Under the pieces are notes generated by a model that saw only the letters and a program-made list of their open reading frames with translations, did not search any database and had not been told where the DNA came from. The position numbers and the translations under genes are program-made. Positions 25,728-31,105 of a stretch of 32,000 nucleotides of DNA are shown here, one piece after another; positions within the stretch are counted from its first letter, which is position 1, and each line of letters begins with the position of its first letter. This DNA is from Candidatus Heimdallarchaeota archaeon (GTDB lineage: Archaea; Asgardarchaeota; Heimdallarchaeia; Heimdallarchaeales; Kariarchaeaceae): assembly GCA_030149205.1 (NCBI GenBank), contig JASBSB010000003.1:270001-302000 (forward strand), read 5' to 3'.

Positions 25728-25867
25728 ACTAAGTGAATATTTATTTTGACTTTTTATTTGACTCCTTTGAAACACTTACTGAGTGAACAGCTTTTGAATA
25801 AAAACAATGAGAGGAATTAATGAGAAAATATCTTTATATATTTATGTAAGATGTGAGATGTGTAATT

Positions 25868-27676
25868 ATGGAAGAAACTGAAATTGGCTCTCGCATAAGA
25901 GCACCTATTGGAGTTATTATGGGGCATGTGGATAGCGGGAAGACATCTCTTTTAGATAAAGTAAGGAAAACTGCGGTTCAGGCCAGAGAGGCCAAAGGTA
26001 TAACTCAACATATAGGTGCGAGTTTCTTCCCAAGAGAGACAATTGAGGAGGTAGGGAGAGCGATACATCAGGGAAAACTAAGCCTTAAGATTCCTGGAGT
26101 GTTAATGGTAGACACCCCAGGTCACGCAGCATTTATGAATCTTCGCTCTAGAGGAGCTTCAGTAGCAGACATAGCAATAGTAGTCGTTGACCTAACCTCT
26201 GGGTTTCAAGCCCAAACATATGAAAGTATTCAAACTTTAAAACGACGTAAAGTTCCATTTGTGATTGCTGCAAATAAGGTTGACAGACTACCCGGTTGGA
26301 AGAGCAATAAAGATACACCTTTTGTAAAAAGTTATGAATCACAAAATGTTACTGCAAAAGCAGCGTTGGATTCCAAAATTTATGAAATAATGGGAGAGCT
26401 TGGCACCTTGGGGTACGAATCAGACAGATATGATAAAGTGAAGAATTTTACAAAGAAAGTTGGTATCATACCTACCTCAGCTTCTTCCGGAGAAGGGATA
26501 TCTGATTTGTTCCTTGTTATATCTGGATTAACTCAACAGTTCCTGATGGCAAAGTTAGAAACCACACAAAAACCGGGGAAAGGAGTAATTTTAGAAGTTA
26601 AGGAGGAGCAGGGGATGGGAACAACGATTGATGTGATCCTTTATGATGGAACACTAAAGGAGAAGGACACAATAGTAATCGGAACTAGAAATGGGGCAAT
26701 ATCAACAAAAATGCGAGCAATGTTTCTCCCCAAACCCTTGGATGAAATGCGAGATCCTAAGGATAAATTTCAAAAAGTTAAAATTGTTCATGCTGCCTCA
26801 GGGATAAAAATCACGGGGAGTGGTTTAACCGATGCCATGGCAGGAGCTCCATTATACGTTTCTGTTACCAAAGATGATGAAGACAAATACAAACAACTTA
26901 TAAATGAGGAACTTGCTGAATTTCAAATTAAAACAGATAAAGAAGGGATAGTGGTTAGAGCTGACACATTAGGATCTTTGGAAGCTCTTGTGGGGATGAT
27001 TAAAGAAAAAGGTATCCCAATAAAATCAGCAGATGTGGGAGATGTATCTAAGAAAGATGTGATTGATGCTGTAATTACCTCTAGGAGCAATCCAGAACAT
27101 GGAGTGATTCTTTGTTTTAATGTTAAAATAAGTGATGACGCTGAAGAATACGCAAATATTGAAGGTGTAGAGGTTTTCAAGAATAATGTTGTCTATAATT
27201 TGCTTGATTCTTACCTAGAATGGTTAGAAGAAAAACTCACCAAGCAAAGAAAAGAGGAAGAAGGGATTCTTAAAAAACCGACAAAGATTAAATTAATACC
27301 GGAATATGTATTTCGTAAAAATAAACCCGCTGTGGTTGGAGTTGAAGTTTTGAGTGGGGAGCTAGAGCCCCATGATTTGTTGCTCAATGAACAAAACAAA
27401 AGGGTAGGTTCAATTCAACAAATCCGACACAATAATGATCCGGTGAAAAAGGCAACTAAAGGAATGCAGGTAGCAATCAGTGTAAGAGGTCCAACCATTG
27501 GAAGGCAGATTCAGGCAGATGAAATTTTATATGTAGATTTGAGACAAAGAATCGCATTAAAATATATTTCAGAGAGTTCTCATAAACTAACTGAAGATGA
27601 AAAGCAAACCCTCAAGGATCTGGAGTTAATTAAAAAGAGAGCTGGTTTAACATACTGGCCATTTGCAAACAACTGA
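25868..27676 (+). CDS. infB: Translation initiation factor aIF5B (IF-2 homolog)
   Basis: IRAPIGVIMGHVDSGKT, GITQHIGA, DTPGHAAFMNLRSRG, NKVD, ADTLGSLEAL. TTTATATA at 25833-25840 favours ATG 25868 over 25853. Confidence 0.97.
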   Translation: MEETEIGSRIRAPIGVIMGHVDSGKTSLLDKVRKTAVQAREAKGITQHIGASFFPRETIEEVGRAIHQGKLSLKIPGVLMVDTPGHAAFMNLRSRGASVADIAIVVVDLTSGFQAQTYESIQTLKRRKVPFVIAANKVDRLPGWKSNKDTPFVKSYESQNVTAKAALDSKIYEIMGELGTLGYESDRYDKVKNFTKKVGIIPTSASSGEGISDLFLVISGLTQQFLMAKLETTQKPGKGVILEVKEEQGMGTTIDVILYDGTLKEKDTIVIGTRNGAISTKMRAMFLPKPLDEMRDPKDKFQKVKIVHAASGIKITGSGLTDAMAGAPLYVSVTKDDEDKYKQLINEELAEFQIKTDKEGIVVRADTLGSLEALVGMIKEKGIPIKSADVGDVSKKDVIDAVITSRSNPEHGVILCFNVKISDDAEEYANIEGVEVFKNNVVYNLLDSYLEWLEEKLTKQRKEEEGILKKPTKIKLIPEYVFRKNKPAVVGVEVLSGELEPHDLLLNEQNKRVGSIQQIRHNNDPVKKATKGMQVAISVRGPTIGRQIQADEILYVDLRQRIALKYISESSHKLTEDEKQTLKDLELIKKRAGLTYWPFANN

Positions 27677-27689
27677 CCTGTGTGTAAGA

Positions 27690-28874
27690 ATGAATTTTAG
27701 AGACCTATTTCAAGACCAAATACAAAATAGAATTTATTTGGATAGCATATCACAAACTTTGATACCCAATCGAACAATTAGAGAGATATCAGAGTTTTTG
27801 AAGCATAACCCATTGACAACCAGTCCTTCAATTCATAAAGAATCGATCGACAATCAAGCATTAATAAATGGATGCAAATTTAAATTTCAAAAATTTCTAC
27901 AGCTGGACGAATTCTCAACCATTCTATTTACGAGTAGAGAAACCGCTTTAAATCAGGTTTTATATTCAATTATTTCTATTTCTCATAGGAACCAACTAAT
28001 TGGGTCAATTTGGGATGATAACACCATCCATTCTATCTTGATTGCTCATGAGAAATTAACGAAATCAACTTTACATTTATTTGATATTTGGGAAATAGAA
28101 GATGTTGAAAGCTATAAGCATAAATTACCAAGTAATGGTGTCATGATCTTAAACTCAGAATCATTAATAAGCACCAAAAGATATCCACTAGAGAAATTAC
28201 TTATGATTTCAAAAGCTATGGGCAATATTAACATCTTAGATGCATCATTTTCCGATTTCCAAGCCTTGCAAACGCTTCATGATCTTCAAATCGATATACT
28301 TATCATTGATACCCGGTATAATCTTTATACTCTCCCTGGATATTGCCAGGTGTTCTTTAAAACAAATTATCAGCTCGAACCTTTGTTGTACTCAAGTAAA
28401 AACATCACTCAGATAAATGCTCAGAAGTCATCATTTGAGGTCAGTACTGAACAAAACATTGAAGCTTTGGAATTTGAAAAAATTAATCCAGTTGTTGTAA
28501 CATCCTTAATTGAGTCGATGAATATCCTCCAGCAATATTCTGTGAAATCTATAGAAACTTATCTCTTAGATATTAAATCAGATTTGCTCTCCAACAGAAT
28601 TCTAAGTTCCCGAATTCCCCACCTAACTCTAAAAAATGCACCTTTGAATTTATTTATCCCAATTAATGTATCACCTTTTTCATCTCATGATGTTGCAATC
28701 CTCCTAGATGAAAACTACAATATCAAGGTCAGATCTGGCTTATTATGCTCACACTTGGGTGTTAACAAGTTGGGGGTCTCTGATTTGATTTTGCTATCAT
28801 TACAGTTCTATAATACTAAAAATGAAATTCAATTATTTTTAACCGCAATTGAAGAAATCTTCAATCCTGAATAA
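27690..28874 (+). CDS. Divergent SufS/CsdA-like class V aminotransferase-fold protein lacking the PLP-binding lysine (probable pseudoenzyme; ORF intact)
   Basis: IYLDSISQT, LFTSRETALN, ILDAS, SHDVAILLDENYNIKVRSGLLC, SLQFYNTKNEI are SufS landmarks; the SGHK position reads DTRY. ATG 27690 preferred over TTG 27663. Confidence 0.78.
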   Translation: MNFRDLFQDQIQNRIYLDSISQTLIPNRTIREISEFLKHNPLTTSPSIHKESIDNQALINGCKFKFQKFLQLDEFSTILFTSRETALNQVLYSIISISHRNQLIGSIWDDNTIHSILIAHEKLTKSTLHLFDIWEIEDVESYKHKLPSNGVMILNSESLISTKRYPLEKLLMISKAMGNINILDASFSDFQALQTLHDLQIDILIIDTRYNLYTLPGYCQVFFKTNYQLEPLLYSSKNITQINAQKSSFEVSTEQNIEALEFEKINPVVVTSLIESMNILQQYSVKSIETYLLDIKSDLLSNRILSSRIPHLTLKNAPLNLFIPINVSPFSSHDVAILLDENYNIKVRSGLLCSHLGVNKLGVSDLILLSLQFYNTKNEIQLFLTAIEEIFNPE

Positions 28875-28940: not shown

Positions 28941-29837
28941 ATGACTCTTTATGTTAAGTTTCATCCAAACTACATGGTTGAGATTATAGCTATCATGGGA
29001 AGGGTCAAAACAAAAAAAATTCACCTTCTAATAAACCCGGAAAGGGATTTAGATAAAACGCCAAACAACAAATATGAAATAGACCTACCAAAATTAACTC
29101 ATTTGTTTTTCATCAGAACAACCCCTGATTCAGGGCATCAATTTGAATTTATGAGAGACTTGTCTGAGACCTTGAATATCCCCATAATACTTGAAGATAG
29201 CGCATTACATAGAGCTACGGAACATCATATCAACCGTAGGCAGATTAGAACATTAACAGCTTTCAATGAGGTATACCCCAAGTTCAAATTAGGACTGATT
29301 AAGTATGAACCAAAGATCCATAATGCTGAATCTGAAAGAATCAAGTTTAAAAACGAAAAATCTGAGATTCAACAGACCCAAGATTTCATTATGAAGGTTA
29401 TCAACACAACCACCATAAGACCAATAAATTCAGTGTTTGCCCGCATTCCTCAAGGGTTCAAAAATATTTTCAGACCCATAAAAAGGATTCGACCAAAGCT
29501 TCCATTAATTGTTGATGAACCTGAGAGTGATCTGCTTTCATACTACCCAATGACTCTTAAAATTGAATTCAAAACGGACGTGTACTTTATCCCGTTAACT
29601 TCACATGGTAACAAACATATGCTTAGCTCCGCGAGACATTACCTTCCAAAAGTTGTGATAAAGACCCAACCGAGTATATCTGACATTCAAGACTTTAATG
29701 GGTTGGTTGAAAAGTTGGTTTTAATTGATAATAAAGTTGATAAGGATCAATTTGAAATTTCAGAATTTTTCAACCCTTCAATTCACACAAATATGACAAT
29801 TGGGGCATTAGGTCAATGGATAGAAATTAGTTTGTAA
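28941..29837 (+). CDS. Hypothetical protein, probable degenerate metallo-beta-lactamase (UPF0173/UlaG-like) fold
   Basis: By-eye alignment: MTLYVKFHPNYMVEI ~ MKITWLGHACFLI; HLLINP ~ ILIDP; IDLPKLTHLFFIRTTPDS ~ EDLPKIDxxLxSHxHxDH; C-terminal LGQWIEI ~ PGESIEL. Start uncertain (28932/28941/28974). Confidence 0.5.
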   Translation: MTLYVKFHPNYMVEIIAIMGRVKTKKIHLLINPERDLDKTPNNKYEIDLPKLTHLFFIRTTPDSGHQFEFMRDLSETLNIPIILEDSALHRATEHHINRRQIRTLTAFNEVYPKFKLGLIKYEPKIHNAESERIKFKNEKSEIQQTQDFIMKVINTTTIRPINSVFARIPQGFKNIFRPIKRIRPKLPLIVDEPESDLLSYYPMTLKIEFKTDVYFIPLTSHGNKHMLSSARHYLPKVVIKTQPSISDIQDFNGLVEKLVLIDNKVDKDQFEISEFFNPSIHTNMTIGALGQWIEISL

Positions 29838-29872: not shown

Positions 29873-31105
29873 TTACAAGTTAGGAGCAGTCATTTTAATA
29901 GAATCTTGAATTATGTTAAAAGCAGTGTCAATTTCATCTTTAGAAATAATTAAAGGAGGTGCAAACCTGATTGTTGTTTCATGTGTTTGCTTTGCTAACA
30001 ACCCTCTTTCTTTCATTGCAAGAACATAGGGTTTTGCTTTTCCTGCTGCGCTTGTAAACTCTATGGCAAGTAACAAACCTCTTCCTCTTACCTCCTTCAC
30101 AACTTGTGAAGGCAGAGTCTTTAATTTATCTAAGAAGTATTTACCATTTTCTTGAGATTTTTGAGCTAAGTTTTCTTCAACTAGCACATCAATTGCTGCG
30201 CTCCCTACAGCACATGCCAATGGGTTTCCACCAAATGTAGACCCATGTGACCCACTGCTTAACACAGACATCACCTCTTTAGACCCTAAAGTTGCAGAGA
30301 TAGGCATGATTCCACCTCCTAAAGCCTTTCCAACCAGCAAAATATCTGGTTGTACATCATCATACATAAAGCAGAAAGGTTTTCCAGTCCTACAGAAACC
30401 TGTTTGAATTTCATCTGCAATGAGGAGGATATTATTTTCCTGACAAACTTCATACACATTTTTTAAATAACCCTGAGGAGGGGTGATTACCCCCGCTTCT
30501 CCTTGTATAGGTTCAACCAAAAATGCAACTGTGTTTGGTGTAATAGCTGCTTTTAACGCATCAACGTCACCAAAAGGGATTTTTACAAAGCCAGGTGTTG
30601 CAGGACCAAAATCACCGTAAGTGTCTGGATCTGAGGAGAACCCAACAATGGTGGTTGTACGTCCATGAAAATTGTTTTCACAAACTATGATCTCAGCCTT
30701 ATCCTTTGGAACTTTCTTCTTCCAATATCCCCACCTTCTTGCCACCTTGATTCCGGTTTCAACTGCTTCAGCACCAGTATTCATGGGGCAAGCCATTTCA
30801 TATCCGGAGTACTCGCATAACTTTTGAAGAAATCCACCTAACTTGTCATTATAAAAAGCTCTTGAAGTAAGTGTAATCCTATTAAGTTGGTTCTCAGCTG
30901 CTTTTATTATGTTTGGATGGAGATGCCCCTGGTTTACTGCAGAATACGCTGATAAGCAATCAATGTATTTCTTGCCATCAACATCCCATACATAGATTCC
31001 TTCACCTTTAGATAATACAACAGGAATTGGAGTATAATTTGGGCTAGCCCATGTATTCTCCAATTTGATAAATTCTTGTGTTTTGGATTCATTTAATTGA
31101 GCCAT
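29873..31105 (-). CDS. rocD: Ornithine--oxo-acid aminotransferase (class III PLP)
   Basis: NYTPIPVVLSKGEG, YIDCLSAYSAVNQGHLHP, LTSRAF, MNTGAEAVETGIK, NFHGRT, EPIQGEAG, DEIQTG, GKALGGG, HGSTFGGNPL. Confidence 0.94.
   Translation of the reverse strand: MAQLNESKTQEFIKLENTWASPNYTPIPVVLSKGEGIYVWDVDGKKYIDCLSAYSAVNQGHLHPNIIKAAENQLNRITLTSRAFYNDKLGGFLQKLCEYSGYEMACPMNTGAEAVETGIKVARRWGYWKKKVPKDKAEIIVCENNFHGRTTTIVGFSSDPDTYGDFGPATPGFVKIPFGDVDALKAAITPNTVAFLVEPIQGEAGVITPPQGYLKNVYEVCQENNILLIADEIQTGFCRTGKPFCFMYDDVQPDILLVGKALGGGIMPISATLGSKEVMSVLSSGSHGSTFGGNPLACAVGSAAIDVLVEENLAQKSQENGKYFLDKLKTLPSQVVKEVRGRGLLLAIEFTSAAGKAKPYVLAMKERGLLAKQTHETTIRFAPPLIISKDEIDTAFNIIQDSIKMTAPNL

Follow-up and report, generated by a model that had tools for sequence, protein, structure and literature searches.

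A 394-codon gene in the analysed stretch of DNA from a Heimdall-group Asgard archaeon (the window; 32,000 nucleotides, contig C7:270001-302000, in a genome of 3.3 Mb and 93.5% completeness) encodes a SufS-like protein that, judged from the residues of its active site, no longer binds PLP or cysteine and is not a cysteine desulfurase. The gene is placed by phylogeny as a diverged member of a well-supported, old, Asgard-wide clade of paralogs that lack the catalytic lysine (Lys-less), and its structure model, open frame, kept positions and loop identity point to a product that is folded and selectively maintained. We consider that there is about an even chance that this protein is a PLP-independent, cysteine-based persulfide carrier, a mechanism that we infer from the residues retained in the clade. 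The features of the locus are the following:

25853-27676, plus strand: aIF5B/infB, directly upstream with a 13-nt gap (PRK04004, 772 bits).
27690-28874, plus strand: Lys-less SufS-like gene, 394 aa plus stop, recognized by Pfam, the AlphaFold2 model and a structure match.
28941-29837, plus strand: gene for a 298-aa MBL-fold protein (c13) without HxHxDH, adjoining the SufS-like gene in the genus.
29873-31105, minus strand: ornithine aminotransferase, convergent, a positional marker common to the Kariarchaeum ortholog.

The coordinates and the intact, full-length reading frame given in the initial annotation were reproduced, with an ATG at 27690 and no stop within 27690-28874, and so was the spacing of 13 nt from infB, whose TGA lies at 27674-27676. 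The choice of this ATG is supported by the agreement of the N-terminus with the clade-conserved residues F7 and Y16-L17-D18. The functional link to aIF5B that had also been proposed was not supported, since four genes separate both genes in the congeneric genome G001 and the SufS-like gene has another upstream neighbour in the congener G003 and in Kariarchaeum. An A/T-rich TTAATTAAAAAG is located at window positions 27625-27645, in the 3' end of infB and about 50-60 nt 5' of the ATG, and it could be a putative internal TATA-like promoter for the SufS-like gene.

The HMM comparison with PF00266 (Aminotran_5), suggested initially as a check, revealed an end-to-end match (86 bits, positions 1-371), and the score against the curated SufS model TIGR01979 was 81 bits, below its cut-off of 475. 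The bit score against the family profile was rejected as a separator of Lys-less and Lys-bearing proteins because true SufS proteins reach 300-350 bits with it, so that a phylum-wide tally of profile hits does not give the size of the family. The AlphaFold2 model, obtained with 26 relatives as input, showed a pLDDT of 88.4 and a pTM of 0.90, and the best Foldseek matches were E. coli SufS (8vbs, TM 0.82) and the Thermococcus onnurineus desulfurase (TM 0.81-0.82). On the basis of this model, a type II cysteine desulfurase (SufS) fold with class-V architecture is predicted with confidence for the product, and the quality of the model together with its similarity to E. coli SufS argues that the residue pattern described below is not due to chance. 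The ESM Atlas search returned generic class-V clusters only. The residues and motifs considered in the analysis of the active site are the following:

27741-27743, plus strand: Asp18 of YLD, clade-invariant, equivalent to E. coli SufS D28, the contact of R359.
28239-28241, plus strand: Asp184, the pyridine-nitrogen Asp, the sole fully retained former PLP ligand, 97% in the clade.
28317-28319, plus strand: Tyr210, column of the PLP Schiff-base Lys in the alignments with NFS2 4q75, the own SufS and the homologs.
28728-28754, plus strand: VRSGLLCSH loop, with Arg348, Gly350 and Cys353 invariant and His355 as a clade-specific gain.
28791-28793, plus strand: Leu368, in place of the substrate-carboxylate Arg; 81% of the clade have Gln here.

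The lysine column was placed relative to Arabidopsis thaliana NFS2 (4q75), the SufS of the same genome and, through the family profile, the T. onnurineus desulfurase 5b7s. The replacement of the Schiff-base lysine by tyrosine, noticed initially from the letters of the sequence, was recovered in several alignments. In the phmmer alignment with 4q75, SSHK was placed over DTRYN, RSGHHC over RSGLLC and the Arg of RaS over Leu, and Lys was absent throughout DILIIDTRYNLYTLPG. The loss of the substrate-binding arginine held as well, with Leu368 occupying the Arg column of the RxS motif, in which 99% of the Lys-bearing homologs have Arg. A comparison of 27 Lys-less relatives with 104 Lys-bearing homologs has been carried out, and the positions considered as lost were those 76-100% conserved in the Lys-bearing group and gone in the Lys-less group. 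The E. coli SufS numbering used here is what we take to be the correct one, anchored on PDB variant names and on PMC11507941. With this numbering, the replacements in the window protein are T95 to E84, N175 to L159, Q203 to F187, S223 to D207, H225 to R209, K226 to Y210, T278 to K264 and R379 to L368, and the second His of the GHHC motif is also gone (Leu352). Among the PLP-binding residues T95, N175, D200, Q203, S223, H225 and T278, the Asp alone has been retained. Since nearly every PLP- or cysteine-binding position has been replaced, two of them by acidic residues, the protein is predicted to be unable to act as a PLP-dependent desulfurase; this inability was already proposed in the initial annotation, and the eight replaced positions of the site now extend the case made there. 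B6 binding of any kind is unlikely given the acidic residues at two phosphate-binding positions, and no Lys column conserved in at least 50% of the sequences was found within the Lys-less clade; together, these results exclude that a nearby lysine binds PLP instead.

The persulfide cysteine was kept, as first described, in an RxGxxC-type loop (Cys353, 28746-28748, in VRSGLLCSH), and in a MAFFT alignment that included the own SufS and 135 homologs this column was Cys in 135/135 of the aligned homologs. The VRSGLLCSH sequence was the same in all three genus copies aligned. Five residues were invariant over 26 clade members when the window protein was included (D18, R348, G350, C353 and S370), and the same columns were 97-100% conserved when it was excluded. 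The E. coli SufS equivalents of D18, R348 and C353 are D28, R359 and C364. In E. coli SufS, R359 touches D28 and the alpha3-alpha4 loop, and D28, R359 and R56 have roles in transpersulfuration; changes of SufS residues caused moderate desulfuration defects and abolished the stimulation by SufE, that is, the transpersulfuration step (PMC11507941). Because the invariant D18, R348 and C353 match these E. coli residues, the clade seems to have retained the persulfide hand-over half-site and discarded the half-site for C-S cleavage.

Several residues have been gained in the clade, namely a Gln at the R379 position (81%), the His of an STH motif, two residues past the invariant Ser (89%), a CxH His (70%), an Asp at the S223 position (59%) and an Arg at the Q203 position, the Arg of DxSR (52%). 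As new residues have been acquired in the old pocket, this pattern looks like remodelling rather than decay. The window copy has two of these gains, D207 and H355, with F187, L368 and Q372 instead of the others; of the 36 positions with at least 75% conservation among the other clade members, it retains 25. The equivalents of R56, G57 and H123 are absent from the genus copies, and the window copy additionally lacks Gln368 and His372. The loss of R56, H123, the DxSR Arg, Gln368 and the STH His suggests that the window copy may have moved away from the function of the family.

The best non-self matches of the window protein among 1.84 billion representative sequences had only 25-29% identity, and nearly all the top-scoring ones were without the lysine. 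A FastTree phylogeny of 162 rows has revealed a branch with support 99* that splits off a Lys-less side of 44 rows, 41 of them without Lys; the three other rows have a Lys or an Arg-type residue that is secondary according to the tree. The window copy was found in a 99* subclade together with Kariarchaeaceae sequences, on a long branch that makes its exact place within the clade unsure. All named clade members are Asgard archaea, with organism names taken from cluster look-ups, and they include Kariarchaeaceae, Kariarchaeum pelagius, Heimdallarchaeaceae, Heimdallarchaeota, Odinarchaeota, Ranarchaeia and Promethearchaeota; one record labelled as Methanobacteriota is identical to the copy in a genome of the window's own genus. 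By sequence inspection, Lys-less copies occur in six GTDB families of three classes, with tandem Lys-less pairs being frequent in the sister family, and the clade members carry only the annotation 'aminotransferase class V-fold PLP-dependent enzyme'. In the congeneric orthologs, the DTRYN of the window is DGTKD in G001 (L060, G001:C1:159015-160145) and DGTRD in G003 (L069, G003:C91:14370-15479), with a Lys or an Arg, respectively, back in the Schiff-base column and the remaining PLP site gone.

In the mechanism favoured here, Cys353 would work cofactor-free. The sulfane sulfur that it accepts would come from environmental polysulfide or from another protein able to generate it, for example the SufS-SufU of the genome or a rhodanese; Cys353 would hold this sulfur as a protected persulfide within the remodelled pocket and would hand it to an acceptor. 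The hand-over would be governed on the solvent side of the pocket by D18, R348 and C353, as the equivalents of D28, R359 and C364. A persulfide relay, put forward in the initial annotation along with a redox sensor and a heterodimeric regulator as candidate roles, is a plausible role for Cys353 on sequence grounds. The main rival explanation, which we regard as possible but rather unlikely, is that Cys353, together with the clade-gained His, donates a ligand to an Fe-S cluster or a metal held by a scaffold, with the sulfur supplied as free sulfide in an anoxic habitat. This role has a precedent in a Lys-less desulfurase homolog whose Cys ligates a [2Fe-2S] cluster on IscU (PMC7585200, PMC8918507), and the CxH and STH His and the Asp at the S223 position gained in the clade putatively line the old pocket. 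However, the invariant set consists of Asp, Arg and Cys and is not a His/Cys cage, the STH His has been lost from the window copy (Gln372), and IscU, SufU or SufBC genes were adjacent in 0/17 neighbourhoods of the family. Across these 17 neighbourhoods, no sulfur, Fe-S, IscU, SufU or SufBC gene was found as a conserved neighbour, and no IscU or SufU gene was found within 5 genes of the SufS-like gene. A conserved operon partner was also ruled out, as the neighbourhoods share lineage-level synteny only, with an ARPC4-like gene, GlmS, saccharopine dehydrogenase, S10 and a nucleotidyltransferase. The ARPC4-like gene (Arp2/3 subunit; PF05856, E 3e-9), found at L061:201-686(-) with homologs in L062, L063 and L065, is a conserved divergent neighbour of the Lys-less gene in the sister family, where an unannotated 148-aa gene flanks it as well.

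A complete sufB-sufS-sufU-sufC operon is present on contig C4 of the window's genome, encoding a SufS that scores 537.5 bits against TIGR01979 and has the SGHK motif, and two further Lys-bearing paralogs are found in this genome. Type II Lys-bearing enzymes coexist with the Lys-less copy in 5/5 of the complete Asgard genomes checked. This constant coexistence, and the fact that each SufS active site takes H55 and R56 from the partner subunit (PMC11507941), would favour a regulatory heterodimer in which the SufS-like protein lends or withholds the alpha3-alpha4 loop and tunes the output of an active desulfurase. Nevertheless, we consider this heterodimer improbable, because the R56 and G57 equivalents have been lost in this genus, the gene lies apart from the suf operon, and the tandem Lys-less pairs of the sister family suggest pairing with each other instead. 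In one of the Lys-bearing SufS paralogs of the window's genome (L002:1417-2766, G000:C4:327754-328935), about 20 extra residues separate the Cys loop from the RxS strand; this paralog scores 307 bits, below the SufS cut-off of 475, and is conserved in G003 with 64% identity.

The divergence of the gene within its genus has been analysed by comparing the window genome with its congeners G001 and G003. The identities obtained are the following:

aIF5B: 73% to the congener (G001 only).
Ornithine aminotransferase: 82% to the congeners.
Lys-bearing paralog: 64% to the congener (G003 only).
SufS-like gene: 25-29% to the congeners.
Downstream gene: 24-25% to the congeners.

The low values of the SufS-like gene could indicate a decaying relic, a former enzyme left without function under relaxed selection in this genus, and the window branch is also the longest of its subclade (1.41 versus a median of 0.67) and has lost several clade-specific residues. 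However, the genus is broad, with about a dozen distinct genes showing from 22 to 82% identity, mostly 45-65%, so that the SufS-like and downstream genes are at the low end of the range but not outside it. Near relatives of the window protein were not found in a search of 5.8 billion proteins, among the 1.84 billion representatives or in metagenome contigs, and the congener copies are saturated for dN/dS. Selection was estimated in relatives with the Nei-Gojobori method; in the sister family, 43 pairs of orthologs gave dN/dS values of 0.04-0.32. A pair of Kariarchaeum pelagius contigs gave a dN of 0.032, a dS of 0.338 and a dN/dS of 0.095; this positional ortholog has the same convergent ornithine aminotransferase downstream and is among the nearest tree neighbours of the window protein. 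The dN/dS and Cys conservation tests proposed at the outset have therefore revealed purifying selection in the relatives and a Cys conserved in all the homologs aligned, and not the relaxed selection with loss of the Cys that would be expected for decaying orthologs. The frame of the window gene itself, in a genome of 35% G+C, is still uninterrupted after more than one change per site, and when neutral drift to 50% identity was simulated 200 times with the base composition of the window, at least 6 stops appeared in 200/200 simulations (mean 16). With the loop conserved in the three genus copies and 25 of the 36 positions kept, we regard the relic explanation as very doubtful.

That the protein is still a B6 enzyme, with PLP or PMP bound non-covalently or through another lysine for a different reaction, is hardly credible even though Asp184 is kept, A. 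fulgidus IscS binds PMP without the lysine and a Lys occupies the column in the G001 ortholog, because none of the four phosphate ligands, the O3' Gln and Asn175 has been kept, with Asp or Glu at two of these positions, no Lys column of the clade reaches 50%, and the G001 Lys is secondary on the tree (Arg in G003, Tyr in the window).

The persulfide carrier proposed here shares with the type II enzymes SufS, CsdA and CsdB (8vbs, 1jf9, 6mr2; 5b7s; Bacillus subtilis 5xt5) the two-domain class-V fold, the RxGxxC loop, the Asp of YLD, the HD motif and the C-terminal S..YNT, and with the T. onnurineus 5b7s type a one-residue insertion after the Lys position. It differs from them in the absence of the Lys, the phosphate cup, Gln203, Asn175 and the substrate Arg, in its low TIGR01979 score (81 bits versus the cut-off of 475) and in its location outside the suf operon. 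Archaeal homologs without the catalytic Lys that keep the loop Cys have been described before, namely A. fulgidus IscS (4hvk, 4eb5; Lys to Asp199) and Methanosarcina acetivorans IscS1. Both lack desulfurase activity (PMC7585200, PMC8918507), and A. fulgidus IscS binds PMP and has a Cys that ligates the [2Fe-2S] cluster of IscU (PMC8918507, PMC7585200). These homologs are type I (IscS/NifS) proteins with IscU encoded alongside and with the binding of PMP or PLP preserved, whereas the window protein belongs to type II, is encoded by a stand-alone gene and shows a dismantled B6 pocket, and it has neither the SxGSAC loop nor the adjacent IscU of the A. fulgidus type. Type I IscS-like genes with SSND or SANS for SxHK were observed in several complete Asgard genomes (L053:8129-9313(-), L067:8083-9267(-), L095 and L094), twice located two genes from a Lys-bearing SufS, and according to the tree this type I loss of Lys, in which Asp takes its place just like in A. 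fulgidus IscS, is independent.

Compared with its Asgard clade (for example, MHA2248876.1 from Kariarchaeaceae, MFW9995652.1 from Odinarchaeota and MGB1995590.1 from Kariarchaeum pelagius), the window protein shares the five invariant residues, D207 and H355, and it is among the most diverged members, with Tyr at the Lys position instead of the Ile, Leu or Val of the clade, Phe for the DxSR Arg, Leu for Gln368 and Gln for the STH His; its gene is also accompanied by an MBL-fold gene that is confined to its GTDB family. The sole inactive desulfurase paralog in a 2022 review is the type I A. fulgidus IscS (PMC8918507). No Asgard or type II Lys-less SufS was found in the literature searched, most subscription papers being outside this search, and the Asgard cofactor-less SufS-fold family is apparently undescribed.

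Inactive desulfurase homologs are known chiefly from type I, and the role of A. fulgidus IscS is still debated. The family described here would add a type II scaffold without the whole B6 site, with the copies of relatives under purifying selection, in the archaea closest to eukaryotes. Since the retained set is the Asp-Arg-Cys tied to persulfide hand-over, the family may serve as a natural separation-of-function variant for studies of protected persulfide transfer. The family may also represent a missing link in the sulfur trafficking of archaea, in which little is known about the donors that serve Fe-S clusters, tRNA thiolation and SAMP/Urm1-type chemistry. With these genes annotated as PLP-dependent enzymes or cysteine desulfurases, the capacity of Asgard genomes for cysteine desulfuration is overestimated.

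The downstream c13 gene was detected, with one query, only within its GTDB family, in 9/11 genomes versus 0/29 genomes from the remaining families of the order. In the window and in the congeners G002 and G003 it comes immediately after the SufS-like gene, and in G001 one small ORF lies between the two; in one further genus both genes are near each other, and elsewhere in the GTDB family they are unlinked or distant. The predicted fold of the protein (pLDDT 77, moderate confidence, with a disordered basic insert at residues 131-195) matches UPF0173/Igni18-type metallo-beta-lactamase folds (E 4e-5, TM 0.53-0.56 relative to the target), and in place of the HxHxDH metal motif only a T-H is conserved. 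The c13 protein may be a candidate partner of the SufS-like protein in this genus. A broader scenario, which we put forward tentatively and consider rather improbable as a whole, is that the SufS fold became a cofactor-free persulfide (or Fe-S) carrier early in Asgard archaea, providing a separate sulfur route beside the SUF/IscS-like system, and that in the Kariarchaeaceae-type lineage of the window it would have co-diverged with the metal-less MBL protein into a two-pseudoenzyme module whose new function would be lineage-specific.

Other sulfur relay components have also been considered. A selenium relay was rejected, with no SelD above the cut-off in the 93.5%-complete genome, and so was SufE as a general partner, with PF02657 in 0/5 complete Asgard genomes with the family and 0/5 without it. 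In the window's genome, a tandem-rhodanese gene (295 aa) immediately precedes an orphan SufE-domain gene (148 aa) at G000:C2:540460-543837 (L106:1474-2895, minus strand). This rhodanese-SufE pair may constitute a PLP-independent persulfide route that, as SufE was not found in the ten other complete Asgard genomes, may be lineage-specific.
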